Notes: generated by a model from the letters alone, not told the origin. 64,000 nucleotides of DNA from an uncultured Lachnospiraceae bacterium (GCA_964638675.1 CAZXAU010000001.1:56966-120965), one strand, 5' to 3'; positions 16,905 to 37,513 are shown, counted from the first letter of the stretch. Made by a program: numbers and translations.

Positions 16905-19739
16905 ATGAACAATTCGATAAAAATTAAGGGTGCAAGAGAAAATAATCTCAAAAATATAGATGTCGAAATTCCTCGTGATAAGCTTGTCGTAATTACGGGA
17001 CTCTCGGGCTCGGGAAAATCGTCACTCGCATTTGATACGATATACGCCGAAGGGCATCGCCGATTTGTGGAATCTCTCTCGTCATATGCAAGGCAGTTTC
17101 TCGGTCAGCTTGATAAGCCGGATGTCGATTTTATTGAAGGACTTTCGCCCGCAATTGCTATAGACCAGAAAACGACATCGAAAAATCCACGCTCCACGGT
17201 TGGAACTATAACAGAAATTTATGATTATCTCCGACTTTTATATGCGAGAGTCGGAACTCCGCACTGTCCGATCTGCGGCAGGGCGATAATTATGCGTACT
17301 ACCGACAGCATAATTGATGAGATTATGGATCTGCCCGAGAAGACAAGATTTGTTTTAATGGCACCTGTCGTCAAATCAAAAAAAGGTATGCACGAAAAGG
17401 TGTTTGAATCGGCGAAAAAATCGGGATATGCACGTGTAAGAGTTGACGGCTCGATATATGAGCTGACCGAAGAGATCAAACTCGACAAAAACCTCAAACA
17501 TACAATAGAGATCGTTGTTGACCGCCTTGTCATAAAAAGCGATCTCCGCCCGCGCCTTGCCGATTCGGTCGAAACTGCAATGAAGCTTGCGGACGGCTGT
17601 ATAAAGGTACTTGTAATGCCGAAGGATTCGGAGGAATACGAGCTTGATTTCAACCGCAACTACGCCTGTGAGGAGCATGGGATATCATTTCCCGAGCTTT
17701 CACCACGTATGTTTTCATTCAACAATCCGCTCGGTGCTTGCGATGAATGCTCTGGACTCGGTGAAAAGCGGATATTTTCTCCCTATCGAATGATCCCCGA
17801 TAAGTCAAAATCCCTGCGAGAGGGAGCAATACAGGTAAACGGCTTCAAGACGGTCAGCGAAAAGACATGGAACGGTCCTCTTTTCATCCTTTTGGGCAAA
17901 GATTACGGTTTTACCATAGACACTCCGCTGAATCAATTTTCAGATGAAGCAATGAATGCTCTGCTCTACGGATGTGATAAGACCTATGAATTTATAGGGG
18001 AATTTGACGGCAATAAAAAACCACGAAAGGTCAAATATGAAGGTATTGTCGGCATGATGGAGCAAAGGGCGGGAACTGGAATATTCGGCTCGCAGGAGTA
18101 TTACGATCAGTTTGTCGATGATATCCCATGTCCGAAATGCAAAGGAAAGCGACTGAAAAAGGAGCTTTTGTGCGTAACTGTCGGGGATAAAAGCATTGAT
18201 GAATTCTGCGATATGCCGATCTCACAGGCGCTTGATTTCGTCAATAATTTACAGCTCAGCCCGAGCAATCAAAAAATCGCAAAGGATATACTTACCGAAC
18301 TCAAAGCAAGGCTTAATTTCCTTTATGAAGTCGGTCTTGAATATCTGACTCTCTCAAGAAAGGCGGGAACGCTCTCGGGAGGAGAAAGCCAGAGAATACG
18401 TCTTGCAACCCAGATAGGGTCGGCTCTCATGGGGGTAATATATATACTTGACGAACCCTCGATAGGGCTGCATCAGCGTGACAATTGCAAGCTTATTGCA
18501 ACACTTAAAAAACTGCGTGATACAGGAAACACTGTGCTTGTCGTAGAACACGATGAAGAAACGATGCTCGAATCGGACTATATTATAGATATAGGACCAG
18601 GTGCAGGAGTAAACGGCGGACAGCTTGTTGCCTGCGGAACACCCAAACAGCTTATGATGTCAAAGAGATCTGTTACGGGCGATTTTCTCTCGGGCAGAAG
18701 AAAGATAGCCGTTCCCGAAACAAGAAGAGAAGGAAACGGAAAATTTCTTGAGATAAAGGGCGCATCGCTCAACAATCTGAAAAATGTCAATGTGAAAATA
18801 CCACTCGGGACTCTTACCTGTATTACCGGTGTTTCGGGTTCGGGAAAATCCTCACTCATAAACGGAACACTTTATCCCGTGCTCGCCTCTGAGCTGAACG
18901 GTGCACACACATTTCCGGGAAAGCATGATAAGATCCTCGGCATACAGCATCTTGACAAGGTTATCGCCATCGATCAAAGCCCGATAGGACGGACCCCACG
19001 TTCAAACCCTGCGACATATACAGGCGTTTTCACCGACATACGTGAGCTCTTTTCCGAAACGCCCGATGCGAAAAAGCGTGCTTATACCTCGGGAAGATTT
19101 TCTTTCAATGTGAAAGGCGGAAGATGCGAAGCATGTGAGGGAGACGGCGTGAAATGTATAGAAATGCATTTTCTTCCCGATGTATATGTCACATGCCCCG
19201 TGTGTCACGGAAAAAGATATAATATAGACACTCTCGAGTGCCGGTATAAAGGCAAAAATATATCGGATGTACTCGAAATGAGCGTAGATGAAGCGGTTGA
19301 CTTCTTCGCAAATCAGCCTAAGATCTTACGCAAAATTACAACTCTTCAGGATGTCGGACTCGGATATATAAAGCTCGGCCAGTCTGCAACCACACTTTCG
19401 GGAGGAGAAGCACAGAGAGTCAAGCTTGCAACAGAGCTGTCAAAACGTGATACCGGAAAAACAGTCTATATCCTTGACGAGCCGACAACAGGTCTGCATT
19501 CAGCCGATGTTGAAAAGCTGATAGCAATACTCGACCGCCTTGTGTCAAACGGCAACAGCGTTATTGTCATCGAGCACAACATCGATGTAATAAAAACTGC
19601 CGACTATATCATTGATATGGGACCCGAAGGCGGAAACGGCGGCGGACAGGTCGTTGCAACAGGAACGCCCGAGCAGGTCGCCGAAAACGAAAGATCACAT
19701 ACAGGGAAATGTCTGATTAAAGTGCTGGAAAAGTGCTGA
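16905..19739 (+). CDS. uvrA: Excinuclease ABC subunit A
   Basis: Two ABC ATPase modules ([25 protein letters not shown]; [16 protein letters not shown]) and zinc-finger Cys clusters. 944 aa. Confidence 0.97.
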
Positions 19740-23137: not shown

Positions 23138-24454
23138 TCAGACCAAGTCGTTATCATCAAATTTGTCTCCGCATTCGGGACAGAATTTCGGAGGATTTTG
23201 CGGATCATCGGGAATCCATCCGCACTTGTTGCATCTGAATTGTCCGCTCGGACGTTTTGCACCGCATTCCGAACAGAATTTGCCGCTGTTTACATTGCCG
23301 CAAGAGCATTTCCATGTGCCGTCATTTGCCGGTTTCTTTTCACCGCAGGATGAGCAGAATTTTCCCGAATTCTCATTTCCGCATTTCGGGCATTTCCATG
23401 TGTTTTCGCTCTTTTCAGGAGCTTTTTGCTGATTTTGTGCCTGCTGCTGAGCCGCAACACCGTAGAGATTCTGTGCTGTGTTTCCGCCGGCACCCTGAGC
23501 TACGCCCATTCCCATAAATCCGAGCATTGCTCCGCCCGAGTTTGATGCGGCTGCCTTCATTGCCTCGGCTTGTGCGTCGACCATAGCCGCCGCACCCATT
23601 GATACGTCACGGTAGACCGCTTTTTTCTGAAGCTCTTTTATAAGCTTTTCATCTTCCGCCGATGCACTGACCGAGTTTACACCAAACTGTGCTATAGTTA
23701 TGCCCCGTGTTTCTGCCCATTTTTTTGAAAGCACATCGTTGAGGGCGTCGGCTATTTCAAGTGTATGCCCTGGAAGTGAGCTGTAACGGACTCCCATATC
23801 GGAGATCTTTGCGAATGCCGGCTGAAGTGCGGTGAGAAGCTCGCTTTTGAGCTGGCTGTCAATTGTCGAACGTGTATAGCTTTCACTTACATTTCCGGTG
23901 ACATTCGTATAGAAAAGTATCGGGTCTGTGATCCTGTATGAATATTCGCCGTTACATCTGATAGCGATATCGATATCAAGTCCTATGTTTTTGTCGACAA
24001 CTCTGAAAGGAACGGGTGTTGCCGTACCGTATTTGTTTCCGACTATCTCTTTTGTATTGATATAGTATACCCGCTGGTCACGTCCGGTATCTCCGCCGTA
24101 TGTGAAGCGTTTGCCTATATCCTTGAAGGTATTGAGAATACCTGTGCCCAGTTTTCCCGTAAAGATCGAGGGAGATGTTGTTGATGAGTATTTGAATTCG
24201 CCCGGTTCTGCACAAAGTTCGACTACCTTTCCGCCGTCAACGATCAGCATACACTGACCGTCGCTTACGGCAACGACCGAACCGTCGGATATTACATTAT
24301 CGCTTCCTTTTGTGTTGGAAGATCTTGAGCTTGTTTTCTTTCGTCCCTTGCAGACGAGAGTGTCCGATGACATCGAATCGCAGTAAAAATATTCCTTCCA
24401 CTGATCGGCAAGATTTCCTCCGAGTGATCCTGCAAATGCCTTGATAAGTCCCAT
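23138..24454 (-). CDS. SPFH (Band-7_1 / YdjI-like) protein with three C-terminal zinc ribbons
   Basis: AAGGAG SD. The N-terminus MGLIKAFAGSLGGNLADQWKEYFYCDS and body are typical of the YdjI / 'virion core protein' SPFH family. The C-terminus carries CPKC..CSSC, CSC..CSEC and CNKC..CPEC. Confidence 0.75.
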   Translation of the reverse strand: MGLIKAFAGSLGGNLADQWKEYFYCDSMSSDTLVCKGRKKTSSRSSNTKGSDNVISDGSVVAVSDGQCMLIVDGGKVVELCAEPGEFKYSSTTSPSIFTGKLGTGILNTFKDIGKRFTYGGDTGRDQRVYYINTKEIVGNKYGTATPVPFRVVDKNIGLDIDIAIRCNGEYSYRITDPILFYTNVTGNVSESYTRSTIDSQLKSELLTALQPAFAKISDMGVRYSSLPGHTLEIADALNDVLSKKWAETRGITIAQFGVNSVSASAEDEKLIKELQKKAVYRDVSMGAAAMVDAQAEAMKAAASNSGGAMLGFMGMGVAQGAGGNTAQNLYGVAAQQQAQNQQKAPEKSENTWKCPKCGNENSGKFCSSCGEKKPANDGTWKCSCGNVNSGKFCSECGAKRPSGQFRCNKCGWIPDDPQNPPKFCPECGDKFDDNDLV

Positions 24455-24586
24455 TGTTTTCTCCTTTTTGTTATTGGCTATTATTCTGAAATGTTGTTTT
24501 GTGGTCTTTTGCGGAAGGTTTCCCCACCTTCAAAGATTTTACGGAATGTAAATTTTACATATTGTAAAATGAAAAATGAATTTAAA

Positions 24587-25393
24587 TCAGAAATGTCCTC
24601 CGTGATGCGAGCCTCCGCCCGAATGGCCGCCTGAGCCTCCGCCCGATCTTCCGCCCGATGACGAATCGGGTTTGGGTACCTTTGTCAGGGTACTGTACAG
24701 GAAGCGGTCTCTCGATTCGGTGATCGTGATATCCCGGTTTTCAAAATATCTTGAAGCACCTCTCTGTTTTTTAACGGTGTCCATTTTGGATCTCATCGAC
24801 AGTACAACGACAAGCGAAATTACTGCCCCGATAATAAGCGATATCAGAGCGTATGTCAGACATGAGCTCATGCTTTTTCCCACAATAAATCTTTCATTTT
24901 CGCTGTTGCCCGAGAACTCGAGTGCAAGCTCGGCAAATTTCACTGCGGCACCGTCAAAATTGTTTGCACGAAGCAGCGGCATTATCGCCCCATTGAGTCT
25001 GTCGCCTTCATCGTACGTGATCTTACCGACATATTCACCGTGTCTTACATATATATCGAATGAACGGCTGATCGTTCCGAGATAGAGAAGCACTCCGCTT
25101 TCGCAATAGTTTCCGTTTAAATACATCCTCTCGGCATCGTCGTCACGTATGCTGTCATTTGAATTCACATAGTTTGTGTAATAAATTATAACAGAACAGT
25201 TGTATTTTTCATATGCTTCGTCTATAAGACGATTTATTCTGTTGGCACTTTCTGAGCTTATTGTTCCTGTATGATCGATCAGTTCTCCTTTATTATAGAT
25301 CCTCTCCTTTGTTGCAAACGAGGGGATTAAAGAGAGGGCGATCATCAATACCGCAAGAATAAGGCAATAAAATATTTTATATCTTTTTCTCAT
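24587..25393 (-). CDS. TPM-domain membrane protein (YdjH-like)
   Basis: Start moved to ATG 25393 (GAGGGGGA SD). Signal/TM, then a TPM-like domain (HTGTISSESANRINRLIDEAYEKYNCSVIIYYT ... GVLLYLG), then a TM, then a Gly/His-rich tail GGRSGGGSGGHSGGGSHHGGHF. Confidence 0.7.
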   Translation of the reverse strand: MRKRYKIFYCLILAVLMIALSLIPSFATKERIYNKGELIDHTGTISSESANRINRLIDEAYEKYNCSVIIYYTNYVNSNDSIRDDDAERMYLNGNYCESGVLLYLGTISRSFDIYVRHGEYVGKITYDEGDRLNGAIMPLLRANNFDGAAVKFAELALEFSGNSENERFIVGKSMSSCLTYALISLIIGAVISLVVVLSMRSKMDTVKKQRGASRYFENRDITITESRDRFLYSTLTKVPKPDSSSGGRSGGGSGGHSGGGSHHGGHF

Positions 25394-25403
25394 GCTGTCC
25401 CCC

Positions 25404-26492
25404 TCAAAGTATGAATATAAGAAGCAGTGACAGAAGAGCACCAATTCCTAAAGTCATGGATGCAAGCCATGCAAAAAATCTGCCGTAATCAACAGGTAGC
25501 TCACCCGAGGCTTTACCTGTCTCACCGTTCATTGCAAACTGATAATTTTTTCCTCTGTATTTCGTATTCAGCATCCACACGGGAAAGAGTGCATATATGA
25601 CACCTGAATTTGTATGCTTGATGTTTGAGGATTCTTTTATAACTCCTGTATAGCCGAGAGTGGTTTTGCGGAATTCGCCGTCAATGCTTTCAAGCATCCT
25701 GGCGTTGATCCTCGACTGAAGCTCGGACGGCTCTACATCATATTTATCGGCGTTATATCCTGCAAGATATGACGCATTGAAGGGTTCGGATCTATCGGCA
25801 TTGAACGGCTCGATAGATTCCATGAGTGCATCGTCTGTTTTTTTACTGCCGTCTGCCGGGATATTTCTGAATATGAAATTGCCTTTTCTGTAAAGTCGGA
25901 AGTAATCGGTTTTAGTGTAAATATATCTTGAATCTGACCATGTGAAAACCTTTTTCGCTCTGTATACGACTTTGGCGTCGCTATCGCAGTCGAACAGCCA
26001 GAAGGGAACATATACTCCGGTTACATTTTCGATCCTGTTTTCAGATTTAAAGGCTTTGGGAAGGAGCGGCTTTCCTTTATACAGATTTTTGAGAGCCTGT
26101 TTTGCATCCGATTTGTTCATTCTGAAGGGAATTACTATATCAGGACGGTATATTCCGCTCAGCCGTTCAGGAATCATTGCAGGATTTCCGCAATATACAC
26201 AGGTGGTTGAAGATGTGTTGGCATCGGTTATGAGCTGACCTGCACATGAAGGACAGGTGAAGACCTTGAATTTATCATCTTCTTCGCTTGTGAATTTTCT
26301 GTCTTCGCCCGGGGCTTCAAATTCATCTGCTGTATCTGCTGTATCGCCGATATCACCGACCTCTGAGCTTTCTACAAATTCCTCGATACCTATTTCACAG
26401 CCACAGTATTCACACACCATTTTATCTGATTTTCCGTCATATTCAATTTTTGCGTTACAGTGCGGGCATTTGCTGACTATCGATTCTGACAT
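25404..26492 (-). CDS. Double zinc-ribbon protein with a C-terminal TM (YdjG-like)
   Basis: Start moved to ATG 26492 (GGAG SD 7 nt upstream). Motifs CPHC..CEYC and CPSC..CVYC, the conserved IVIPF and GVYVPFWLFD motifs, and a C-terminal TM. Confidence 0.7.
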   Translation of the reverse strand: MSESIVSKCPHCNAKIEYDGKSDKMVCEYCGCEIGIEEFVESSEVGDIGDTADTADEFEAPGEDRKFTSEEDDKFKVFTCPSCAGQLITDANTSSTTCVYCGNPAMIPERLSGIYRPDIVIPFRMNKSDAKQALKNLYKGKPLLPKAFKSENRIENVTGVYVPFWLFDCDSDAKVVYRAKKVFTWSDSRYIYTKTDYFRLYRKGNFIFRNIPADGSKKTDDALMESIEPFNADRSEPFNASYLAGYNADKYDVEPSELQSRINARMLESIDGEFRKTTLGYTGVIKESSNIKHTNSGVIYALFPVWMLNTKYRGKNYQFAMNGETGKASGELPVDYGRFFAWLASMTLGIGALLSLLLIFIL

Positions 26493-26665
26493 GACAATCT
26501 CCATTCTGCCGCCGGAGCGGCGGCACAAATCATTTAGGGAATTCGCTGAGGCTACTCATCAAATCTGGGCGTGAAACAGATGAACTTCTCCATGCAGGTA
26601 AAACATATCTATCACGCTATCACCTTTCTCGAACTTTCCTTATGCGATCATTCTTTCACATTTCG

Positions 26666-26811: not shown

Positions 26812-26840
26812 TTGACAACAGTGAAAGAATATGGTATTAT
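26812..26840 (+). promoter_or_regulatory. Near-consensus sigma-A promoter facing the DNRLRE-protein gene
   Basis: TTGACA, a 17-nt spacer, then TGgTATTAT. It is divergent from the promoter at 26666-26694. Confidence 0.75.
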
Positions 26841-26846
26841 GATATT

Positions 26847-27015
26847 GTAGAAAAGTAACCATAGATAACTCGCAATCCCCGATGCAACGTCAGTGCTGTT
26901 GAGGTATTCTTGAATCTATATAATGCTATGGTGCGGTGAAGCATCACCGTCAGGAATATTTTTGAATAATAAGGCACATAAGCTTCGGGACTCATAGGGG
27001 ACTTATGTGCTTTTT
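26847..27015 (+). ncRNA. Candidate leader RNA / small RNA of about 170 nt, bounded by a promoter and an intrinsic terminator
   Basis: The predicted TSS is about 7 nt after the -10. There is an internal hairpin CGGTGA agca TCACCG. The terminator is GCACATAAG ...19 nt... CTTATGTGC followed by TTTTT at 27011-27015. No ORF with an RBS lies inside. Confidence 0.45.
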
Positions 27016-27214
27016 AATTTGAACTTTGGAGGAGGATACCGATCATGTACAGTATCATTAGTTATGTAAACATATTTTCAGACCGCAGGCTTCCTCTGCT
27101 TTTCCGCTCTAGTGGCATATAGATCTGAAGGCAGGATCTATATGCAAGGATACGTTATGCCGTAAATAAATTATCGAATTAACCGATCCATGAAAAACAA
27201 CGAAAGGGAGAAAT

Positions 27215-30200
27215 ATGTTCAAAAAAAGCAAAGCATTGACAGCGTTATTGCTTACTGTCGTAATACTTTTCGGTTCTGTCCTGGGTGGCGTATTCGCACT
27301 TGAATCGGACAAATTGACCAATGCATCGGATATGACATCCGTAATGCCGGGCGAGCTGTCCGGATTGACCGATTTGAGTCATGAATTCAGTGACGGAGCA
27401 GTAATCGGTAAGGTTGCGGAAGTCACCTCACTGCGTGATGAAAATGTAAAGCATTTTCGTCTTGATAACGGAACATTTGAAGCGGTCATGTATCCTTATC
27501 CGGTACATAGACAGGATTCTGACGGCGTCTGGCAGGATATCGACAATTCTCTTGCACTGAAAAACGACGGAATGCTGAAGGTTTACGCAACATCAGATTC
27601 AAGAGTGAAATTTGCGGATTCATTCAAGTCAAATTCAGAGTTGTACAGCTTGAGCGAAAACGGTTATTCGATATCGATGGCATTGATAGAAAATGAACCG
27701 TTAAGGTACACTGGAACTCTGAATGCCGGACTTGAAAATAAATCTAAGATCATCGTAAGCAGCGGTGAAAAATACTCAGCCGAAAAGGCTTTTGATTCGC
27801 TTGAGCAGGCGGCAAAGATCAATAATAAAAGCTCGGTCCTCTACTGCAATGTAAGAGCGAATACCGACATTCAATACATTTTGCAGGAAAATGACATTAA
27901 AGAGAATATAATAGTCAAAGCTCCGGGTGAAAGCTATGAATATCGCTTCGGAATTGCTCTTGAAGGGCTTACAGCCTCGCTTGATAGATCGGGCGTCATC
28001 AATCTTTATGATGCCGAAAGCGGCGAGCTGAAATATATTATGCCCGCACCATATATGTATGACATTGGCGGTGAATATTCAAATGATGTATCATATGATA
28101 TACAACAGCTTCGTGACGGCAGTTATCTGCTTACTGTAAGCGCTGATGAGAAGTGGATGAACTCAAAGGAGCGTGTATTCCCGGTTACTATAGACCCGAC
28201 ATTGACATTGCCGAGTTCAGCTTTTGACTCATATACCGATAAGTCAAATCCCGATGAAAATTACGGTCTTGATGAGAAAATGTGGGTGAGCAGCGAAAAA
28301 ACTGCATATATACATATGGCTGTTCCGAACCTTCCGGCAACCGCAACCCTAAATTCCGCAACTTTGCATGTTCCGTACTATTTTAATAAAACAACAGGAA
28401 GCTTGCTTGCCGCTGCATATCAAGTGTATGAAGTTTGGTTTGAATCTGCGATAACATATAACAACACACCGGATTGTTCAACACTATCTCTCTCAAATAC
28501 AACATTGATCGCCTCTTCGTCTGTAACTCAGGCAACCCCCGGTTGGGCTGAATTTGATATAACAAATGCGGCGGTCGATTGGTATGCTGATCCGACCACA
28601 AACTACGGAGTTGCTATCAAGAGATGGATAAGTCCGTATTCAAACAACTCGTCCGTTATTTTGAAATCGTATGAGTCAGGAAGCGATTGGGCATATATCA
28701 GCGTAAACTATATTAACTATATTCCGAGCGGTGTGTATGCATTCAGATCAAAACTCAGCAGTACCAGATGGATAAAAGTAACCGGTAATTCAGCGGGCAG
28801 TTATCTCCAACATGTCAGCTTAACAAATTTCCCTGCGGACGCTGAAGTTTTTGACCGTTCGTGTCTGTTTAAGATCTACAATGTTCCGGGTACTGTCAGA
28901 TATATTATACGCTCAATGTTGAACAATGAACTGACCTTTGATATTTCCGGAGATAAGTTTGTTACAAAAAAGATATCCAATATTGACAGCGAGGTTCCTC
29001 CGGAGGATAGCTTCTATATCAACTGGGACGGATACGGATTCAAAATACGTCCCTACTATTCCGATAAGATAGTCAATATATCTTCAACATCCAATCCGGA
29101 TCTCACAACTTTGAGCAACGCTGATGCCGGATCGGGAGCAAGATGGGAACTGGTTCAGTATACGGGCAATAGCAAGCGTGGATATACTTTAAACCCAAAT
29201 ACTATGTTTTTAAAGCCCGGAACCGAAGTAACATTAAGTACGATCGTTTGGACAACATCTATTGGCTACAATAAACCCGAAATTGTTTTGAATGACGGCT
29301 GTTCAGATGTAGCATCCCTTGCATGGAACAGAAGTACCGGTATGGGAAAACTGGTGATAAATAAAACCGGTTCGTTTGGCGGCTACATAAGAATACTCAA
29401 AGAAGAAGACCTTAGCGTATACGAGTCTTTATATTTCACCTATGCAGTCAATGTTCCGGTTTCGAGTGGTGACTATTTTGTCATGAACAAAGAAGCAGGG
29501 AAATATATGCAGTTAGATGACGGTGATGCACCGGACTTTAATAATAACGGCGGAATTGCAGAGATTCATTCATTCGACGGAGGAGATTATCAAAAATGGA
29601 CATTTACCCATTTGGGAAGTGGGTATTATAGCATAAGATCTGTTGTCACCGGTTATGCCCTCACAGTTCCGCCGGATAAAGTAACATCCGATAATGTCGA
29701 TTTGGTCTTGAAGCCGTATACCGGTTCTTATAATCAGAAATGGAAGATAACTGTTACAAATAGCGGAGCGTACAAGATCAAAGCAAAGTCATCTGAAAGC
29801 TATACAGAAAAAGATCTTGTTATGGATCTTAAGGATCCAGCATTCTCATATAACGGGCTTAGTATACGGCAGAGAGAGAATGAGGATAGTTCGAGCTATA
29901 GGGACGAGTGGATTATACGAAAATCAAATGATTACACTTTGATGTATATCGGAGATTATGTTGGAGATCCGCAAATGCCTCCTATTTTATCCGATGTAGA
30001 TACAGCATTAAGAAATAATGCCGGCATGAGCGGGTATGCCTACACCTCATTAAATGACGAAGATTTGTTAGGGTGTCTTTCAACAAGTTCAATTTTTTCT
30101 TGTATCACACACGGCGATCAATATGCACTGACAGTGTCAAACGGAATAATTACAGTAAATGATATAAACAGATTGGTGGATGGAGCCTTATCAAATTTGG

Positions 30201-30511
30201 AATTTGTCTGTCTTGGTGCTTGTTCTGTTGGAAGAGGCGGTGCCTCATCTATTAACATGGTTAATGCATTATCCGCCAAAGGCGCACAAAACGTTTTGGG
30301 TTTTAAAGAGAATGTAATAATTCCACATGCAAATCTATGGATGAAAACATTTATGGTAACTCTTTCAACCGGTTGCTCTGTAAAAGATGCTATGGCTGTT
30401 GCCGATGATGCCGTTCAACACGATATCGAATGCCTGTCTTTCGGTGAAATCACAACAAATGAAGAATATCGTTATATATGCGGATCTGATGAGATCGCCC
30501 CATGTAATTAA
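27215..30511 (+). CDS. Secreted multidomain protein: WapA/RHS-like N-terminal region, DNRLRE domain, two ricin-type beta-trefoil lectin domains, C-terminal caspase-like (His-Gly ... Cys) region
   Basis: AGGGAG SD and a signal peptide. The DNRLRE-type segment is about aa 325-500 (DSYTDKSNPDENYG...VYEVWFESAITYNNTP...GWAEFDIT). QxW repeats: YQKWTF, NQKWKI, RDEWII. The C-terminal region has SCITHGD and EFVCLGACSVG. Confidence 0.7.
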   Translation: MFKKSKALTALLLTVVILFGSVLGGVFALESDKLTNASDMTSVMPGELSGLTDLSHEFSDGAVIGKVAEVTSLRDENVKHFRLDNGTFEAVMYPYPVHRQDSDGVWQDIDNSLALKNDGMLKVYATSDSRVKFADSFKSNSELYSLSENGYSISMALIENEPLRYTGTLNAGLENKSKIIVSSGEKYSAEKAFDSLEQAAKINNKSSVLYCNVRANTDIQYILQENDIKENIIVKAPGESYEYRFGIALEGLTASLDRSGVINLYDAESGELKYIMPAPYMYDIGGEYSNDVSYDIQQLRDGSYLLTVSADEKWMNSKERVFPVTIDPTLTLPSSAFDSYTDKSNPDENYGLDEKMWVSSEKTAYIHMAVPNLPATATLNSATLHVPYYFNKTTGSLLAAAYQVYEVWFESAITYNNTPDCSTLSLSNTTLIASSSVTQATPGWAEFDITNAAVDWYADPTTNYGVAIKRWISPYSNNSSVILKSYESGSDWAYISVNYINYIPSGVYAFRSKLSSTRWIKVTGNSAGSYLQHVSLTNFPADAEVFDRSCLFKIYNVPGTVRYIIRSMLNNELTFDISGDKFVTKKISNIDSEVPPEDSFYINWDGYGFKIRPYYSDKIVNISSTSNPDLTTLSNADAGSGARWELVQYTGNSKRGYTLNPNTMFLKPGTEVTLSTIVWTTSIGYNKPEIVLNDGCSDVASLAWNRSTGMGKLVINKTGSFGGYIRILKEEDLSVYESLYFTYAVNVPVSSGDYFVMNKEAGKYMQLDDGDAPDFNNNGGIAEIHSFDGGDYQKWTFTHLGSGYYSIRSVVTGYALTVPPDKVTSDNVDLVLKPYTGSYNQKWKITVTNSGAYKIKAKSSESYTEKDLVMDLKDPAFSYNGLSIRQRENEDSSSYRDEWIIRKSNDYTLMYIGDYVGDPQMPPILSDVDTALRNNAGMSGYAYTSLNDEDLLGCLSTSSIFSCITHGDQYALTVSNGIITVNDINRLVDGALSNLEFVCLGACSVGRGGASSINMVNALSAKGAQNVLGFKENVIIPHANLWMKTFMVTLSTGCSVKDAMAVADDAVQHDIECLSFGEITTNEEYRYICGSDEIAPCN

Positions 30512-31500: not shown

Positions 31501-31725
31501 AGATATGGTATCGTGAAGCAAAGCTGCTTTATGGTGCAACTGCCGATAAAGAAGCAGAGCAAATTGCAATCAAGCTTGGTGCAAAAAAAGAATTAAGCTG
31601 CCTGCTTTGATCCCCTATGATTTTGACGAATCATAGGGGATGAATTTTTATAAAGCAATATGGCTTCTTTATTCCGAAGCGATTTTTTATTTATATCAGA
31701 GCTTTTACTTTTTTTGAAAAAGCTA

Positions 31726-31753
31726 TTGACAAAGCGATAAAAATATGTATAAT
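31726..31753 (+). promoter_or_regulatory. Promoter of the TPP riboswitch-thiT unit
   Basis: TTGACA, a 16-nt spacer, then TATAAT. Confidence 0.75.
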
Positions 31754-31761
31754 TCAATTGA

Positions 31762-31850
31762 CGATACAACAGGGGTGCCTTTTGGCTGAGATGGGAAACC
31801 GAACCCTTTTAACCTGATACGGATAATGCCGGCGTAGGGAGCAATGTACC
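31762..31850 (+). promoter_or_regulatory. TPP (THI-box) riboswitch aptamer
   Basis: GGGGTGC...GCTGAGA...ACCC...AACCTGATACGGATAATGCCGGCGTAGGGA matches the conserved THI element core. A weak AT-rich hairpin plus T-run follows at about 31848-31872. A thiamine transporter gene lies downstream. Confidence 0.9.
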
Positions 31851-32029
31851 GTGAAAAATTTTTCGGTTTTTCGATCGACCTGACTGTAGATTTGTTTTTG
31901 ATTTGATTTTGCGATCGGATCTGTTCCGGGATTTTCTTTTCGGTAATAAAGTTCTGCTGCGGCTTGCCGCGGCTTTTGTTTTATTCGGGAAATAGATATA
32001 TATACTGTACCGTCAGAAAGGAATTTCTT

Positions 32030-32611
32030 ATGAACAAAAGAAATCAAAATCTATTCATCCTTGTCGAATGTGCGGCTATGATCGCTCTTTCGACCGTACT
32101 GAGCCTTTTGAAGGTAATTCAGATGCCTCTCGGCGGCTCGGTAACTCTTTTCAGTATGCTTCCTGTCTGCTTTATTTCTATAAGGCACGGTGTGAAGTGG
32201 GGACTCGGAGCTGCATTTATTTATTCTGTAGGACAGTTTTTCCTTGGCGGATCACTTGGCTGGGGACTTGATCTTACTACACTTGTGATATGTGCACTTC
32301 TTGATTACATAATCGCTTATACGGTGCTCGGTCTTTCGGGAATCTTTGCAAAAAAAGGTTCTGCCGGCATAGTTTCGGGAACTGTTATGGTTTTGGTTTT
32401 ACGTTTTGCCTGTCATTTTCTCTCAGGCGTAACCATTTGGGAACGTTTGAAGCCTTGGGAGCTTTTCGGAAAAACATTTGAGAATATGCCTGTGCTTTAC
32501 TCCTTCTGTTACAACGGTTTTTATATGATCCCCGAGATAGTTTTCACAACTGTTGCTATCATCGTACTCATAAAAATTCCCGTAATCAAAAAGCTGCTGA
32601 TCAAACAGTGA
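32030..32611 (+). CDS. thiT: Thiamine ECF transporter S component ThiT (YuaJ family)
   Basis: Start moved to ATG 32030 (AAAGGAA SD). Six-span protein beginning MNKRNQNLFILVECAAMIALSTVLSLL. It sits under TPP riboswitch control. Confidence 0.85.
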   Translation: MNKRNQNLFILVECAAMIALSTVLSLLKVIQMPLGGSVTLFSMLPVCFISIRHGVKWGLGAAFIYSVGQFFLGGSLGWGLDLTTLVICALLDYIIAYTVLGLSGIFAKKGSAGIVSGTVMVLVLRFACHFLSGVTIWERLKPWELFGKTFENMPVLYSFCYNGFYMIPEIVFTTVAIIVLIKIPVIKKLLIKQ

Positions 32612-33043: not shown

Positions 33044-33250
33044 ATGGAAGAAGAATCTACACAAAAATGTATGACAATGCAGGTTGATATTTATAGTGAA
33101 GCGAATGATGGTATGATATATTATGAGCATCATTACTGTTGGAGAGTCAATGCTGCTATTCTTGCGGCTGTTGGATCAATTGTACTTATCGAATCGGGTG
33201 CAGGTGCACCCGCCGGTGTTGCAGGTTTAGGTGCATTGGTACTTGCTTAA
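33044..33250 (+). CDS. Possible small protein with a Gly/Ala-rich hydrophobic C-terminus (68 aa or shorter)
   Basis: The ORF ends in AAILAAVGSIVLIESGAGAPAGVAGLGALVLA. No convincing SD precedes any of the candidate ATGs, so coding status is uncertain. Confidence 0.3.
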   Translation: MEEESTQKCMTMQVDIYSEANDGMIYYEHHYCWRVNAAILAAVGSIVLIESGAGAPAGVAGLGALVLA

Positions 33251-33273
33251 ATCATTTCATCAAGGAGAGATTT

Positions 33274-33969
33274 ATGGGAACATTCAGAATTCAATATACA
33301 GGGAGCCCGTATTCTAAAGAGCCGAATAAAGCTTTTTTAAAGGAGATGTCGAGGCAGATTTCGGATAAACTTATTATGCTTATCGAAAATGAAGATGTAA
33401 AGAATCACGCAACGGAATTGGTTGGTCTTACTGTTCACAATCAATATTATGAGTACGCAATTCAAAAAAAGCCCGGTTCTTTAACAATGTTCGTGTCTAC
33501 TAAAGGGGCGTTCTATCTATGTAAAATCAATGTAACGTGGAGCGTTTCCGACGGTGAAAACATCTACCCATATGAAAGCATTGCTGGAAGAAGTATTCTT
33601 TTTGATGTTACAATGGAGAGATCCGAGAGAAGCAAGCTGAATTACCTGCTGCCACAGCTTTACAGTCCTGTAATCAAATCGGAGGAAAGCGGATATCCTT
33701 TTGACTATCAGATCCATTTCGGAGGACATACTTTTGTTCTGAAATTCAATCAAGACATAGATACCGAAACGATCCGAAAAAGTGCTGCAATGGCAAGAGA
33801 GCTTTATTTCTGCACCTTTTCGGAGATTCACGGATCTCCGCTGATCCGCATCGGAAAGAGTGAGATCCGCATGACCGTTTCACCGGATCGTTTGAATACA
33901 GATGTCATCATGCAAATACTCGCTATTTTCAAAAAAATACCGGGGATTCAAAGAATTACGGTTCGCTGA
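33274..33969 (+). CDS. Hypothetical cytoplasmic protein (231 aa), no recognisable family
   Basis: Start moved to ATG 33274 (AAGGAGAG SD 5 nt upstream). No signal peptide or TM. Confidence 0.6.
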   Translation: MGTFRIQYTGSPYSKEPNKAFLKEMSRQISDKLIMLIENEDVKNHATELVGLTVHNQYYEYAIQKKPGSLTMFVSTKGAFYLCKINVTWSVSDGENIYPYESIAGRSILFDVTMERSERSKLNYLLPQLYSPVIKSEESGYPFDYQIHFGGHTFVLKFNQDIDTETIRKSAAMARELYFCTFSEIHGSPLIRIGKSEIRMTVSPDRLNTDVIMQILAIFKKIPGIQRITVR

Positions 33970-34026: not shown

Positions 34027-34400
34027 GTTGCCTTAACTATACCCCAAACGATCTCAAATGATGGATTAGTATACAATCAGTATGCCTATGATAAGCTCGG
34101 ACAGCTGATCAGCGAAGACAACGGAGATGCAAATAAGAGCTACACCTATTCCTATGACAGCAGAGGAAATATTCTTGAAAAGAAAACCTATGCTTTCACC
34201 TTTGGAACGCTCGGAACAGTTCAAAAGAAGGACAGCTACGATTATACTTCAGACAGCCGGAAAGACCGTTTGACATCCTATAACGGCAACGATACCATAA
34301 ACTATGACTGCATCGGAAATTCTTCGACCTACAACAACGGTATCTCCTACTCCTTCACATGAGAAGGTCGGCAGGCGCAATCGGCGGTTAAGGAAAGCTC
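34027..34400 (+). pseudogene. Internal fragment of an RHS/YD-repeat protein gene with an in-frame TGA
   Basis: The frame-1 translation reads ...NDGLVYNQYAYDKLGQLISEDNGDANKSYTYSYDSRGNILEKKTYAFTF...DSYDYTSDSRKDRLTSYNGNDTINYDCIGNSSTYNNGISYSFT*EGRQAQSA. It has no start codon. TGA at 34360-34362 sits where such proteins have Trp (TGG). Confidence 0.8.
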
Positions 34401-34628
34401 CTTCTTTCTGTTTTTTATTATAGCAGATCTTTGGACGTTTGTCGACTCTATTCATATTATAACACTCTACTTCAACAATGTTAACGCACCTCCATATGAC
34501 TATAATAACCCATGGAAGCAAAAGATTACTTACGAGACAAGAAACACAAACTATTGATCCGTTGCTTTTCTATAATTCTGCGAATTTTTACTGTGATACC
34601 AATTAAATTCAAAGAAAGAGGTCAGATT

Positions 34629-36233
34629 ATGAAAAAAATTACAGTCTCCATACTCGTTGTTCTTATTGTTCTCATTGTTCTTCCGCTTCCTCTTACGGCA
34701 TCTGCCGGGGAAGAAAAATATGCACTTAAAAACATAACTGAGGAAGAATTCAACTGTTTGTACGGCGAAAAAGAATGCCCTGACAGTTATTTCATTCCGA
34801 TCGCTTATTACGGTTTGACTTATGATGTATACAAAGAAGCTCTTGAAAATGAAGGCAAATTCACCTATCGCTACGGAAATATCTATGTATCTAATCAGGT
34901 TATGTGTTGTGATAAAAACGGGAAGATTTCCCACAGCGTCTGCCGATGGTCATATGGTCATGGTATGGAAGATAGTGATTTTGATTGGATGAATGATCTT
35001 TCTCTTTTGCAGTTAACGTGGTTGGGCGAAAAAAACGAGGCGAATATCATGGCGTTTCTTGCTCCGTGGTGTTTATATGACGGAGAAAATTTCTATACAT
35101 GGAACGATCTTATGTCGCTTTCGATTAACGAACTTTCAAAAATTAATTATTCATTTTACGGATTCAAAACCTTTATTTCGTCTGTTAAATCAGAAATGAG
35201 TAAGCGAGGCTGGTGGAATGATGGGTACGAAGACCTCTACACCCTTCTGAAATTGCATGAGGATGATTACGACGCAGCACATAAAGGCGAAAAGTTTTAT
35301 CCCGGATTTGACGGAAGCAAGGTCTATCTTTCTGAAATATGCAGACAGGCTAATATCAAAAAAATTGAATTATATTATCAGTGTTATTTTTCCTTTGACA
35401 AAATAATTCCCGTATATAATATCGATATATATTCATTCAACCCGTATACAAAAGAGTTTGCCGATTGGTTTTTATCCGTAAAAGGAGATCTTGAAGACAG
35501 CAGCTTTAAGTTATATATGACCGAATTCTGCGAATCATTTTATTCTCCTGAATTACCTGATATAGGAGGAGAAGGTTACGGAATGTATGGTGGTATTAAT
35601 ATGGCATACTACCTTTTTGAAGGCTTTAACATAAAAGACATGTTATATGTAGAAGAATTTGCGGGAAAGGATATCGGTGGATACGGATGTTTATGGAATG
35701 TTTTCAAAGCACATAAAACCGGAATACTGACAGACGATGATGTTGCCTCGGGACTTGCAGAAAAAGCCTATATTGATCGCAGAGGAAGATTCTATCAGAG
35801 TTACTATGACCTGCTTGTAGGAGACTCGTGGTATGATCTACTCAAATCGACTCTTATGCATAACAGATATCATTTCGGCAGTGTAATTCTTTATTTGGAG
35901 TATAATGATTTTGAAAAAATGAACCGGTCTGTTGGGTGTGCATTTCGGGAGGTTTTCACAAAAGAGCAACTTGAAAGCATTGACGATCCTTATAGGGTCT
36001 ATTCAGATCTTCTCGAACTTCGAACCCTCGATTTCAATTGGGGATACACCGATTTTGGTCCCGGAGAAACCGGTTATGCAAGACTTGAGGAAAACATAAA
36101 GAATGTGAAGGCTCTTATGTCAGATCCTCCTTCGACATCGGACAGTACTGCAATATACGTTGTTATCGCACTTGCATCAATAGCTCTGTGCACCGTGGTA
36201 CTGTTCCGGAAAGGCAGATTTATTAAAGAGTAA
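34629..36233 (+). CDS. Secreted, C-terminally anchored hypothetical protein (534 aa)
   Basis: Start moved to ATG 34629 (AGAGG SD). Signal peptide ...PLTASA|GEE, an aromatic-rich body, and the C-terminus PPSTSDSTAIYVVIALASIALCTVVLFRKGRFIKE. Confidence 0.65.
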   Translation: MKKITVSILVVLIVLIVLPLPLTASAGEEKYALKNITEEEFNCLYGEKECPDSYFIPIAYYGLTYDVYKEALENEGKFTYRYGNIYVSNQVMCCDKNGKISHSVCRWSYGHGMEDSDFDWMNDLSLLQLTWLGEKNEANIMAFLAPWCLYDGENFYTWNDLMSLSINELSKINYSFYGFKTFISSVKSEMSKRGWWNDGYEDLYTLLKLHEDDYDAAHKGEKFYPGFDGSKVYLSEICRQANIKKIELYYQCYFSFDKIIPVYNIDIYSFNPYTKEFADWFLSVKGDLEDSSFKLYMTEFCESFYSPELPDIGGEGYGMYGGINMAYYLFEGFNIKDMLYVEEFAGKDIGGYGCLWNVFKAHKTGILTDDDVASGLAEKAYIDRRGRFYQSYYDLLVGDSWYDLLKSTLMHNRYHFGSVILYLEYNDFEKMNRSVGCAFREVFTKEQLESIDDPYRVYSDLLELRTLDFNWGYTDFGPGETGYARLEENIKNVKALMSDPPSTSDSTAIYVVIALASIALCTVVLFRKGRFIKE

Positions 36234-36313
36234 AGCTTTCTTTATATTTGATCAGAATTTAACAAATGTACAAGTTAATCTTAATCAGGAAAATACGAAA
36301 GGTGAAAAATAAC

Positions 36314-37387
36314 ATGAAAAAAATTCTGTCATCAGCACTTGTATTATTACTTGTTTTTTCGCTTTCGTTGGTATGTTTTGCTGAAGATGATACCATAAGC
36401 GATGAGCAAGCAAAAGATCTGTACAAAAAAATGGAAACCCTTTGGACTATGATAAATCAAAGTCCTGTTGGGAGCATGCCTGTTGATGGCTCGAAAACCG
36501 TAGTTTATTGTTTGCATAATGATTATAATGCAGCAAATAATTCACCCCCCTATCTTTTCGAGTACTATACCGTCAAAGATGAATACAATTCTTTGGAAAA
36601 AATGCAGAATAAATGGGCAGAAGTATTCACAGATGAAATAGCTTCATATGCATTTCTTCCCAACATCCATAACTTGTGTGAGTTCACAGTACATGAGGGA
36701 AAAGTATGCGTTTTTTCGATGGCGGCGTATGCTCCCGGAGATTTCGGACTTTATGATGATATTGAAGGAATTGAAAGGGAATCAGGAAAAGTTGTGTTAA
36801 AGGTAAATGTTGATAACTACCGTGACAGTACCGGCCTTGGTGATTCCGTTCAGACTCACACACTTGAAATTACAAAGGGTGACAACGGATGGCGTATCTC
36901 CGGCGGAAGCCTTATCGATCTTTTGTTCCCTGTTAAATCCGGTTACACTATGCCCGGCGAAGAAGATAGTTTGATTATAAGTGCCGCAAAAGACGGTTGC
37001 ACGCCTTACCAAGAATCGTATATTACCGAATATCAGCTTCAAGGAACTGCAAATACAAAAATAAAGGTATATCCGTATATCGATTTTGAAAATGCACTTA
37101 TTGCAAATAAAGAATCGGAAAAATGCACGCTGTCGGTCAACATTTACAGCAACAAAAAATATAATGGCAAACCTCTTCTTCTTATGGAAAATGCAACGAT
37201 CGAACTTGAATACCGGGATGAAGAATGGAATGTCGTCGGCGGAAGTTATGAAAACCTTGAACAGCACCTTGGTGTAAGTTATATTCCTCAGACATCTGAT
37301 GGTTCTGTATTTTTCGTAGTTCTCATGGTCCTCTCACTTTTATCGATCGGCGTTGTTTCGTCTGTAAAGAAAGAGGTCAGATCATAA
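36314..37387 (+). CDS. Secreted, C-terminally anchored hypothetical protein (357 aa)
   Basis: Start moved to ATG 36314 (AAAGGTGA SD). Signal peptide ...SLVCFA|EDD and the C-terminus IPQTSDGSVFFVVLMVLSLLSIGVVSSVKKEVRS. Confidence 0.65.
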   Translation: MKKILSSALVLLLVFSLSLVCFAEDDTISDEQAKDLYKKMETLWTMINQSPVGSMPVDGSKTVVYCLHNDYNAANNSPPYLFEYYTVKDEYNSLEKMQNKWAEVFTDEIASYAFLPNIHNLCEFTVHEGKVCVFSMAAYAPGDFGLYDDIEGIERESGKVVLKVNVDNYRDSTGLGDSVQTHTLEITKGDNGWRISGGSLIDLLFPVKSGYTMPGEEDSLIISAAKDGCTPYQESYITEYQLQGTANTKIKVYPYIDFENALIANKESEKCTLSVNIYSNKKYNGKPLLLMENATIELEYRDEEWNVVGGSYENLEQHLGVSYIPQTSDGSVFFVVLMVLSLLSIGVVSSVKKEVRS

Positions 37388-37513
37388 AAAAACGCCCTCA
37401 CTCCCGTTGTTCTCATTGTTCTTCCGATAACACTTACAGCATCTGCCGAGAAAGAAAAATATGCTCTTAAAAATATAACTAAGGAAGAATTCAACTATTT
37501 GTACGGCGAAAAA
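37366..37513 (+). pseudogene. Truncated, start-less duplicate of the SD and first ~45 codons of the 34629 gene
   Basis: It aligns with 34611-34772. AAAGAAAGAGGTCAGAT is shared, ATG is replaced by ATA, a 14-nt net deletion lies in the signal-peptide region, and then 91 of 102 positions are identical by hand count. Homology stops at the terminator. Confidence 0.8.

Follow-up and report, generated by a model that had tools for sequence, protein, structure and literature searches.

A secreted lectin–peptidase with an exchangeable caspase-fold tip and an adjoining lipoprotein gene: a candidate polymorphic effector–inhibitor pair of an uncultured Lachnospiraceae bacterium

Little is known of the weapons that Gram-positive anaerobes of the gut use against other bacteria, in comparison with Gram-negative ones. 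Among the described systems closest to the locus discussed here are the RHS/WapA toxins; in WapA-CT1 of Streptococcus suis, the RHS repeats are preceded by a Sec signal, by an N-terminal domain that is uncharacterised and by DNRLRE, and a polymorphic tip and an adjoining protective gene complete the system (PMC12704120). Here, we describe the gene P0001 (27215..30511, plus strand), encoding a secreted lectin–peptidase, and its downstream neighbour, the lipoprotein gene P0066 (30535..31500, plus strand), both located in a 64,000-nucleotide (nt) stretch of DNA from an uncultured Lachnospiraceae bacterium (GCA_964638675.1, CAZXAU010000001.1:56966-120965), referred to as the window, on which all coordinates are counted. 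Set beside S. suis WapA by printed description, P0001 has in common with it the Sec signal, the uncharacterised N-terminal domain, DNRLRE, a polymorphic tip and an adjoining, putatively protective gene. In contrast to RHS/WapA proteins, it lacks RHS/YD repeats, the RHS core, LysM and DUF6531, and two β-trefoils with an immunoglobulin (Ig)-like spacer stand in the place of the shell; its tip is a peptidase, probably acting outside the target cell, and its candidate protective gene encodes a lipoprotein, whereas theirs encodes a cytoplasmic protein.

Caspase-like, papain-like and metallopeptidase tips at the C-termini of Sec-exported polymorphic toxins have been catalogued by comparative genomics (Zhang, de Souza, Anantharaman, Iyer, Aravind 2012, PMC3482391), with Imm36 and Imm57 given there as immunity families of Tox-Caspase. 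P0001 is similar to Tox-Caspase in being a Sec-exported protein with a C-terminal-most caspase-fold His/Cys peptidase, and peptidase tips of several clans are likewise found on one scaffold; unlike the Imm36 and Imm57 proteins, its partner is a lipoprotein without a Pfam family. In the accessible text of PMC3482391, the term “DNRLRE” has no match, and “ricin” occurs three times, not on lectin modules in the passage shown. The ABP systems of Gram-positive bacteria are Sec-secreted, diffusible polymorphic toxins of Bacillota in which the toxin is accompanied by a co-secreted serine protease and by an immunity protein of the cytoplasm (PMC13460014), whereas in P0001 the protease is the tip itself and the partner is a lipoprotein. 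The searchable texts mention neither a lectin scaffold devoid of RHS repeats nor a reused RHS front end, and the partner family of lipoproteins is absent from them as well; the supplementary tables of Zhang et al. 2012 may list related architectures.

With regard to structure, the best matches of the P0001 tip are CHAT proteases (SAVED-CHAT 8tl0; Craspase TPR-CHAT/Csx29) and gingipains, with which it has the His-Gly ... Cys dyad in common. The CHAT enzymes, however, are cytoplasmic, signal-activated defence proteases of 470-730 residues, whereas P0001 carries a domain of 190 amino acids (aa) on a secreted lectin scaffold. With regard to gene organization, pairs of an envelope effector and a lipoprotein or membrane-anchored immunity protein are known from type VI secretion systems (T6SS; Tae-Tai) and type VII secretion systems (T7SS; TelC-TipC), and staphopain-staphostatin is a protease-inhibitor operon. 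The likeness of P0001/P0066 to these pairs lies in an extracytoplasmic enzyme that adjoins a protector of the same compartment and in an inhibitor predicted to occlude the active site. Different from Tae-Tai and TelC-TipC, P0001 has no T6SS or T7SS marker, a plain Sec signal and a caspase fold, and the P0066 family is unlike any solved protein by sequence.

On balance, we consider it probable, if not by far, that P0001 and P0066 are a polymorphic, lectin-targeted extracellular protease effector and its cognate lipoprotein inhibitor, a combination that looks like a swappable weapon-and-antidote cassette. P0001 is an open reading frame (ORF) of 1098 aa, described here from domain profiles and 64 homologs, which starts with ATG and has a purine-rich ribosome-binding site, GAAAGGGAG, just 5' of it. 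Residues 1-28 (27215..27298, plus strand; MFKKSKALTALLLTVVILFGSVLGGVFA, followed by LE) read as a Sec-type signal peptide with a positive n-region, a hydrophobic core and a VFA–LE junction; this call was made by eye from the sequence and agrees with the secretion proposed in an earlier description of this DNA made from its letters alone (the sequence-only reading). A comparable leader is present on every P0001 paralog of the own genome. Full-length homologs with the same architecture, at 38-49% identity, occur in many metagenome contigs, and the architecture is, therefore, old. A Pfam scan of P0001 at E<=1 returned no LysM or CWB-type wall-binding repeats and no DUF6531, nothing like a membrane-translocation domain and no wall-anchor motif.

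The tip (aa 906-1098; 29930..30508, plus strand), which the sequence-only reading had left as a ~190-aa C-terminal region without a family, is assigned to the clan-CD (CHAT/caspase-like) cysteine peptidases by a Pfam profile, an AlphaFold2 model and Foldseek. Pfam CHAT (PF12770) matches aa 975-1070 at 24.5 bits, a marginal pass of the cut-off of 24. The model of aa 901-1098, built from 15 sequences, has a predicted local distance difference test (pLDDT) score of 89.2 and a predicted template-modelling (pTM) score of 0.87; Foldseek returned 235 solved chains for it at E<=1e-3, the rows listed being all CHAT proteases, caspases, gingipains or separase, with SAVED-CHAT 8tl0 (E 1.9e-8, TMq 0.62), Craspase TPR-CHAT, caspases and gingipains (TMq 0.70-0.72) at the top. 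His966 (codon 30110-30112), Gly967 and Cys1003 (codon 30221-30223) are invariant in 15/15 CHAT-type tips. In clan CD, the catalytic His and Cys usually each follow a β-strand, and His966 and Cys1003 come right after model strands 60-64 and 97-101. As modelled, the tip is a minimal 190-aa caspase-fold peptidase with an intact His966/Cys1003 dyad, and it is presumably an active protease. The tip alone was found in 6/61 related genomes.

P0066 (321 aa) begins 23 nt after the P0001 stop codon, behind the ribosome-binding site GAAGGAGG, and contains a lipobox (..ISFCSC). A terminator-like hairpin of 14 pairs with a T run (31610..31641, plus strand) would close a two-gene operon, from which P0001 and P0066 are predicted to be co-transcribed; a sampled-word look-up in sequencing runs returned two DNA runs only (fraction 0.05-0.07) and listed no RNA run. 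In a full HMMER scan of 1.84 billion representatives, the P0066 family counts 151 representatives at E<=1e-3, of which 119 also pass E<=1e-10; most are 285-320 aa long, and a lipobox-like motif is present in 50/60 aligned relatives. The family is nameless in the databases searched: P0066 has no Pfam match, 0/60 relatives match any shared Pfam family (0/60 DUF4901), no NCBIfam match comes near its cut-off, and no solved relative was found beyond signal-peptide matches. DUF4901 matches only the own-genome paralog P0065 (31.3 bits), and a cluster with DUF4901 in 24% of its members stands at rank 6 in the ESM Atlas, which is a lead only; no mention of DUF4901 was found in the searchable literature. 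Word-based homolog searches with either lipoprotein returned the query itself only, and a single-protein search of 60 related genomes gave no P0066 homolog.

Profiles reach further. The P0066-family profile matches a 321-aa lipoprotein encoded right after the own-genome ricin-CHAT paralog at 54.7 bits (best of 300 shuffles, 6.5) and a 308-aa lipoprotein after the homolog in genome G001 at 31.5 bits (shuffles, 9.3). In pairwise phmmer comparisons of four downstream proteins, the window-C6 pair is clear (0/300 shuffles), G001 is marginal (9-10/300) and G029 shows no match. A locus search from the lipoprotein side with a 7-row alignment gave one genome locus and two metagenome loci; in the genome locus (L041) and in one of the metagenome loci (L042), a CHAT-tipped homolog lies directly upstream of the lipoprotein gene, the latter homolog being full-length (1113 aa). 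By profile search, a P0066-family lipoprotein is present in at least 12/120 genomes of the same family, the counts being lower bounds in that 19 candidates were scored per genome and the second copy of the own genome was missed. Among 15 testable lipoprotein genes in 11 genomes (one more, at a contig end, was untestable), eight have a CHAT-type tip ORF immediately upstream (two of these are fragments) and two belong to an array behind such a gene.

That array (G099:C7; L051, L062) consists of a CHAT-tipped gene and, behind it, three lipoprotein genes that are paralogs of one another, the first being separated from the second by a 211-aa ORF; it resembles a poly-immunity array. Behind metalloprotease tips, other lipoproteins are encountered: L016 is followed by a complete 229-aa lipoprotein without a P0066-family match, and L015 by a lipoprotein gene cut at 107 aa that matches the P0066 family in the signal region only. 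By position and by covariation, the downstream lipoprotein varies with the tip, and protection is what these sequence patterns predict. Furthermore, in G073:C13 (L052:228-2457), a 416-aa front-end-only ORF stops inside DNRLRE and is followed 8 nt later by a partner-family lipoprotein; it looks like a deletion derivative that has lost the lectins and the tip.

Structure prediction brings the two proteins together. The tip (alignment A3) and P0066 aa 40-321 (alignment A6) were modelled as a complex with ipSAE values of 0.83, 0.83 and 0.82, whereas three controls gave 0.00, 0.00 and 0.01; the pLDDT of the partner is 84, and the runs agree in >=91% of contacts. In calibration, the ipSAE mark was reached by 58/80 solved complexes and by 2/110 mismatched pairs, counts which apply roughly here, given the custom alignments. 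Tip residues 66 and 103, which correspond to His966 and Cys1003, belong to the confidently modelled interface. Recall of a known complex is unlikely because the P0066 profile has no solved relative, and the model supports binding of P0066 to the tip at its active site.

Further evidence for a polymorphic system, as the sequence-only reading had proposed, comes from the tips themselves, which are swapped and accompanied by a cognate downstream gene. Conservation among the 28 aligned homologs extends over the first ~900 residues, and the last ~190-250 split into classes: 14 are CHAT-like ([ST]HG ... C), 6 papain-like (NWCWAA...GGH), 6 HExxH and 2 other. The Pfam names recovered among these tips are CHAT (3), Reprolysin_5 (2), Peptidase_C39_2 (2), Peptidase_M10 (1), Peptidase_C70 (1) and DUF3289 (1). 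In the front-end tree, the tip classes are intermixed, the CHAT label needing 9 changes, of which at least 5 are forced by starred branches. Between P0014 (CHAT) and P0018 (papain-like), identity is 98-100% over aa 1-750, falls to 36-46% in trefoil 2 and reaches no more than 12-14% in the tip; between P0025 (M10) and P0023, it is ~100% up to aa 850 and 10-18% beyond. At the level of sequence, these mosaic pairs show recent exchange, and their breakpoints indicate that the exchanged unit is trefoil 2 plus tip, or the tip alone. Trefoil 2 plus tip is also the make-up of a 430-aa paralog in the own genome.

The scaffold delivering these tips starts with a front end of two domains. Domain 1 (aa 60-335; 27392..28219, plus strand) was defined by an AlphaFold2 model, VIA-align and its homology to RHS front ends. 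The model, from 29 sequences, is all-β, with a pLDDT of 87.3 and a pTM of 0.82. VIA-align gives a best Z of 10.7, moderately above the usual background of Z 7-8, with a root-mean-square deviation of 3.5-3.7 over 177-179 residues and with the chondroitinase C-domain 9o3q and the mutarotase-like 3mwx at the top; 71 chains reach Z>=8, and the list is filled by polysaccharide lyases, mutarotases and glycosidases with their supersandwich domains of the galactose-mutarotase-like kind. Foldseek returned no match for this model at E<=1e-3. The models suggest, with moderate confidence, a galactose-mutarotase-like β-supersandwich, as a fold-level resemblance. Domain 2 (aa 336-502; 28220..28720, plus strand) is a DNRLRE/CBM96-like β-sandwich: NCBIfam NF033679 (DNRLRE) matches aa 338-495 at 65 bits (cut-off 34), Pfam CBM96 (PF24517) reaches 50.1 bits (cut-off 26), and the “DNRLRE domain-containing protein” of PDB 8wab matches at E 3.3e-5. 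CBM96 matches 20/28 family members. The defining property of CBM96 is binding of alginate or another glycan (PMC9971899), which P0001 would have by homology.

Both parts of what the sequence-only reading had said on this region stand, namely a DNRLRE-type domain at about aa 325-500 and a resemblance of the N-terminal ~500 residues to the N-termini of WapA/RHS toxins. The own genome (2.33 Mb, 32 contigs) contains six further matches to P0001. Comparison of its full-length RHS genes with residues 1-500, which had been suggested as a check, showed that a 2081-aa protein (C3, L009) has aa ~65-500 in common with P0001, after which come RHS repeats (E 2.6e-24) and, as its tip, GIY-YIG. A second match begins an RHS gene cut by the contig end, and a third (1267 aa) is followed by RHS ORFs; the fourth has a Peptidase_M23 end, the fifth (1154 aa) ends in an unassigned region and shows a weak, sub-threshold ricin match, and the sixth is the 430-aa paralog, consisting of signal peptide, ricin and CHAT-like tip only. 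The front end is present in 17/60 related genomes (18/61 including the own genome; 14/36 within the same family), and 4/4 long front-end ORFs fetched from relatives have RHS repeats above the cut-off. With the P0001 front end found on RHS ORFs of both the own genome and relatives, the comparison with RHS toxins was right. The DNRLRE profile also matched in a B. subtilis genome used as a control. P0001 itself has no RHS core and no match to PF05593 (RHS/YD repeat) even at E<=1; hence, it is not an RHS protein, and only the front end is common, which bears out the earlier statement that other modules replace the repeats.

In a maximum-likelihood tree of 44 front-end domains, rooted at the midpoint so that a “clade” is one side of a starred branch, 31 lectin-peptidase rows lie on one side of such a branch (99/99), and all 11 RHS rows, those of the own genome included, lie on the opposite side. 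Over aa 60-335, P0001 shows an identity of 44-58% with members of its family in other organisms and of 39-41% with the RHS paralogs of the own genome.

Behind the front end, two trefoils and a spacer follow. Trefoil 2 (aa 748-905; 29456..29929, plus strand) is a ricin-type lectin, just as the sequence-only reading had described it with clean QxW motifs at ~750-905: RicinB_lectin_2 (PF14200) matches at 71.8 bits (cut-off 25.6), ThreeFoil 3pg0 at E 4.4e-36, and QxW motifs occur at aa 792-797 (YQKWTF), 840-845 (NQKWKI) and 896-901 (RDEWII); the PF14200 match is found in 28/28 family members. For trefoil 1 (aa 503-655; 28721..29179, plus strand), placed earlier at ~505-650 as another ricin module, the trefoil homology stood, whereas the lectin signature did not, as there is neither a Pfam match nor a QxW motif in P0001. 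When the family alignment of 28 homologs was cut into segments and these were compared profile-to-profile, trefoil 1 matched trefoil 2 with an hhalign probability of 95.3% (E 2.1e-8, 136 columns), two controls giving 0.2% and 0.1%; the span also matches the ricin B lectin of PDB 9s11 at E 0.013. With this match, controls near zero and yet no QxW, trefoil 1 is regarded as real but degenerate; its sequence points to homology with ricin-type trefoils, and sugar binding by it is doubtful. The spacer between them (aa 656-747; 29180..29455, plus strand) has no Pfam match of its own in P0001 and is probably Ig-like (Big_2-like), judging from relatives, Big_2 being present at the equivalent place in L034 (E 8.8e-6) and in 1/28 family members.

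A piece of RHS sequence does lie further downstream. It is a decayed fragment with a 111-aa frame (34027..34362, plus strand), outside the P0001 operon, with a PF05593 match of 26.6 bits, above the cut-off, at 34087-34194. To the own-genome C3 RHS paralog, it shows 64% aa and 77% nt identity at ~aa 1558-1664, i.e., the shell end, and it stops with TGA at a Trp of the paralog (FTWEGRQ motif), with no tip. The sequence-only reading had noted such a fragment at 34027-34400, 3.5 kb downstream; the fragment is real, but its frame ends at 34362 and a link to the P0001 locus is not supported. Between the operon and the fragment lie the terminator-like hairpin, a promoter, a thiamine pyrophosphate (TPP) riboswitch, a ThiT-like gene and another ORF.

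According to the mechanism that we propose, P0001 would be exported by Sec as a multi-lectin protease effector. Its two-domain front end, common by descent with RHS toxins, most likely holds it on a glycan-rich surface, be it the cell wall or the target, while the two trefoils, with the Ig-like spacer between them, would, judging from their fold families, add glycan targeting; the C-terminal 190 residues would be the active tip. P0066, on the outer face of the producer membrane, would plug the peptidase active site and protect the producer and its kin, a prediction made because of the conserved adjacency and the complex model. The family behaves like a polymorphic toxin system without RHS repeats, in which unrelated tips sit on near-identical scaffolds and a different tip goes with a different downstream lipoprotein. 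The most likely role, and the least certain step, is that P0001 attacks, outside the cell, the surface glycoproteins of bacteria competing in the gut. Conflict is favoured over nutrition because of the tip exchange, the G099 array together with the solitary lipoprotein genes, and the presence of the front end on nuclease-tipped RHS and M23 proteins.

A protease directed at the host or the diet, with an inhibitor for self-protection, is, nevertheless, a serious rival, even if we hold it to be rather unlikely. P0001 would then be a colonisation or nutrient factor in the manner of gingipains or mucin proteases, with lectins binding Gal/GalNAc-type glycans on mucins or food glycoproteins and a lipoprotein that shields the producer surface or keeps the enzyme latent until release. 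The four glycan-binding-type modules, the gingipains that figure in the top structural matches to the tip (TMq 0.70-0.72) and the lack of anything like a membrane-translocation domain in the Pfam scan all suit such a protein, and outside warfare, too, there are protease genes with a dedicated gene for an inhibitor behind them (staphopain-staphostatin, SpeB-Spi). However, recombinational tip swaps on near-identical scaffolds are typical of conflict systems, and the tip-matched lipoproteins, the three-paralog array behind one effector (G099:C7) and the solitary lipoprotein genes fit this explanation poorly. Characterised M23 enzymes are peptidoglycan hydrolases; if the M23 tip is one, the occurrence of the own-genome front end on nuclease-tipped RHS toxins and on that tip points to bacterial targets. 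An improbable alternative makes the lipoprotein a membrane dock or maturation partner and the pair a surface-tethered protease that processes surface proteins of the producer, as a clostripain-like housekeeping function. Adjacency and a predicted complex show association, not inhibition, and the Pfam scan gave no wall-anchor motif in P0001 itself; yet the modelled interface covers both catalytic residues, so that substrate access would be blocked, which goes beyond tethering, and housekeeping leaves unexplained both the replacement of the tip by unrelated peptidase classes and its patchy distribution (tip alone in 6/61 related genomes).

Two further explanations deserve still less credence. 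That the caspase-like domain is an auto-processing (releasing) peptidase, with the lectin scaffold as the functional product, we consider very improbable, even though most caspase-like domains in polymorphic toxins are releasing peptidases according to Zhang et al. 2012 (PMC3482391): the same source treats C-terminal-most copies as toxins, the P0001 tip is C-terminal-most and has no further domain behind it that it could release, papain-like and zinc peptidases take its place in other homologs, and a dedicated partner is modelled onto its active site. Least credible of all is the remodelling of an RHS locus in place, advanced in the sequence-only reading, with lectins and a protease replacing the RHS shell and the piece at 34027-34400 as a left-over. 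The front end common with RHS toxins and the RHS fragment 3.5 kb downstream had made this attractive. The tree contradicts it, with the P0001 front end grouping with lectin-peptidases of other organisms and not with the own RHS genes, and so do the identities over aa 60-335 (44-58% to the family versus 39-41% to the own RHS paralogs) and the whole architecture kept in homologs at 38-49% identity; moreover, the separate, decayed fragment is the shell end of a different paralog, with a stop codon and no tip, and a terminator, the TPP riboswitch with the ThiT-like gene and another ORF separate it from the operon.

Returning to the effector–inhibitor interpretation, several observations weigh against it. 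Only 3/28 family members reach CHAT at E<=1e-3, P0001 itself barely passes, and the sequence profile finds the CHAT structure 8tl0 only at E 0.34. The complex score is model confidence only, from custom alignments, and the lipoprotein could be a dock or a substrate instead of an inhibitor. Pairing is not universal, given that 4/15 lipoprotein genes are solitary and 1/15 follows the 416-aa front-end-only ORF; a CHAT-type gene in G029 is followed by a 315-aa membrane-anchored protein that scores 4.3 bits with the P0066-family profile, shuffles reaching 7.4, and the metagenome locus L043 is a split lipoprotein gene with no effector in 2.8 kb upstream. The midpoint rooting of the front-end tree belongs here as well. 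Glycoproteins of the host or the diet would be equally suitable targets for ricin-type lectins and CBM-like domains, and how an extracellular protease would harm a Gram-positive competitor is not obvious.

Several implications follow for the field. The locus offers a testable effector-inhibitor pair, comprising a 190-aa caspase-fold protease and a ~300-aa lipoprotein without named relatives, with a predicted interface over the dyad, and the RHS front end emerges as a reusable module serving RHS-less effectors too. The tip-swapped natural set, some members of which are 98-100% identical up to the swap, marks the second lectin module as the place of a recombination junction. Should the lipoprotein turn out to inhibit the peptidase, it would represent a new protein inhibitor class for clan-CD peptidases. 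More tentatively, the family might be an undescribed class of RHS-less, Sec-exported polymorphic effectors in gut Clostridia, in which a lectin scaffold delivers interchangeable caspase-like, papain-like or zinc peptidase tips to the glycosylated surfaces of rivals and a new lipoprotein family confers immunity by plugging the clan-CD site from outside the membrane; should such a class exist, the solitary and arrayed lipoprotein genes elsewhere would be acquired defences against the effectors of neighbours.

Upstream of P0001, a candidate promoter-like site (26812..26840, plus strand; TTGACA-17-TATTAT with an upstream TG) lies ~375 nt 5' of the start codon and agrees with the consensus at 11/12 positions, the promoter-like total of the region being not above shuffled expectation. 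The ~375-nt leader contains a 9-bp hairpin followed by a T run (~26975-27020) and a 25-codon ORF (27045-27122) behind a strong GGAGGAGGA site. These features at 26975-27122 could be a leader peptide or an attenuator; Rfam gave no match in the leader at gathering score.

Directly after the operon, 31726-32611 is an independent unit with a consensus promoter (31726-31753; 12/12 positions), the TPP riboswitch (31761-31857; 64.1 bits versus 54.3) and a gene for a thiamine transporter of the ThiT/YuaJ type (Pfam E 2.2e-28). A 276-codon ORF (33139-33969), located shortly before the RHS fragment and with an internal Met (MGTFRIQY...) as its likely start, has no family and no paralog in the own genome; it might be an orphan immunity gene. 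The region 34512-37513 encodes a 573-aa ORF with a signal peptide and a C-terminal membrane anchor and a 373-aa ORF, both without a known family. The latter has a sub-threshold IseA-like endopeptidase-inhibitor match (E 0.0014; 19.1 bits versus 29.9), and aa 62-87 of the former recur as a short copy at ~37436-37513 with 85% identity.

Elsewhere in the own genome, contig C25 (22.4 kb) is packed with RHS sequence, including two front-end genes and RHS ORFs of 1009 and 580 aa with an internal duplicate, and a stray RHS fragment with a 100-aa frame lies at C18:41635-41937. DNRLRE is present at C2:204490-204978 and C6:118496-118987 (87 and 83 bits) in ORFs of 1225 and 1069 aa; since these ORFs are unmatched by P0001, DNRLRE also occurs in this genome without the supersandwich. 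A candidate immunity gene is the 286-aa ORF (C3:7640-8500) that starts 5 nt behind the gene of the RHS-GIY-YIG toxin. Finally, upstream of P0001 in the window, a divergent set of genes (23138-26528, minus strand) encodes a protein of the SPFH/Band-7 type that has a double zinc ribbon, one with a TPM domain and one with a zinc ribbon, and a UvrA gene is located at 16905-19739 (plus strand).

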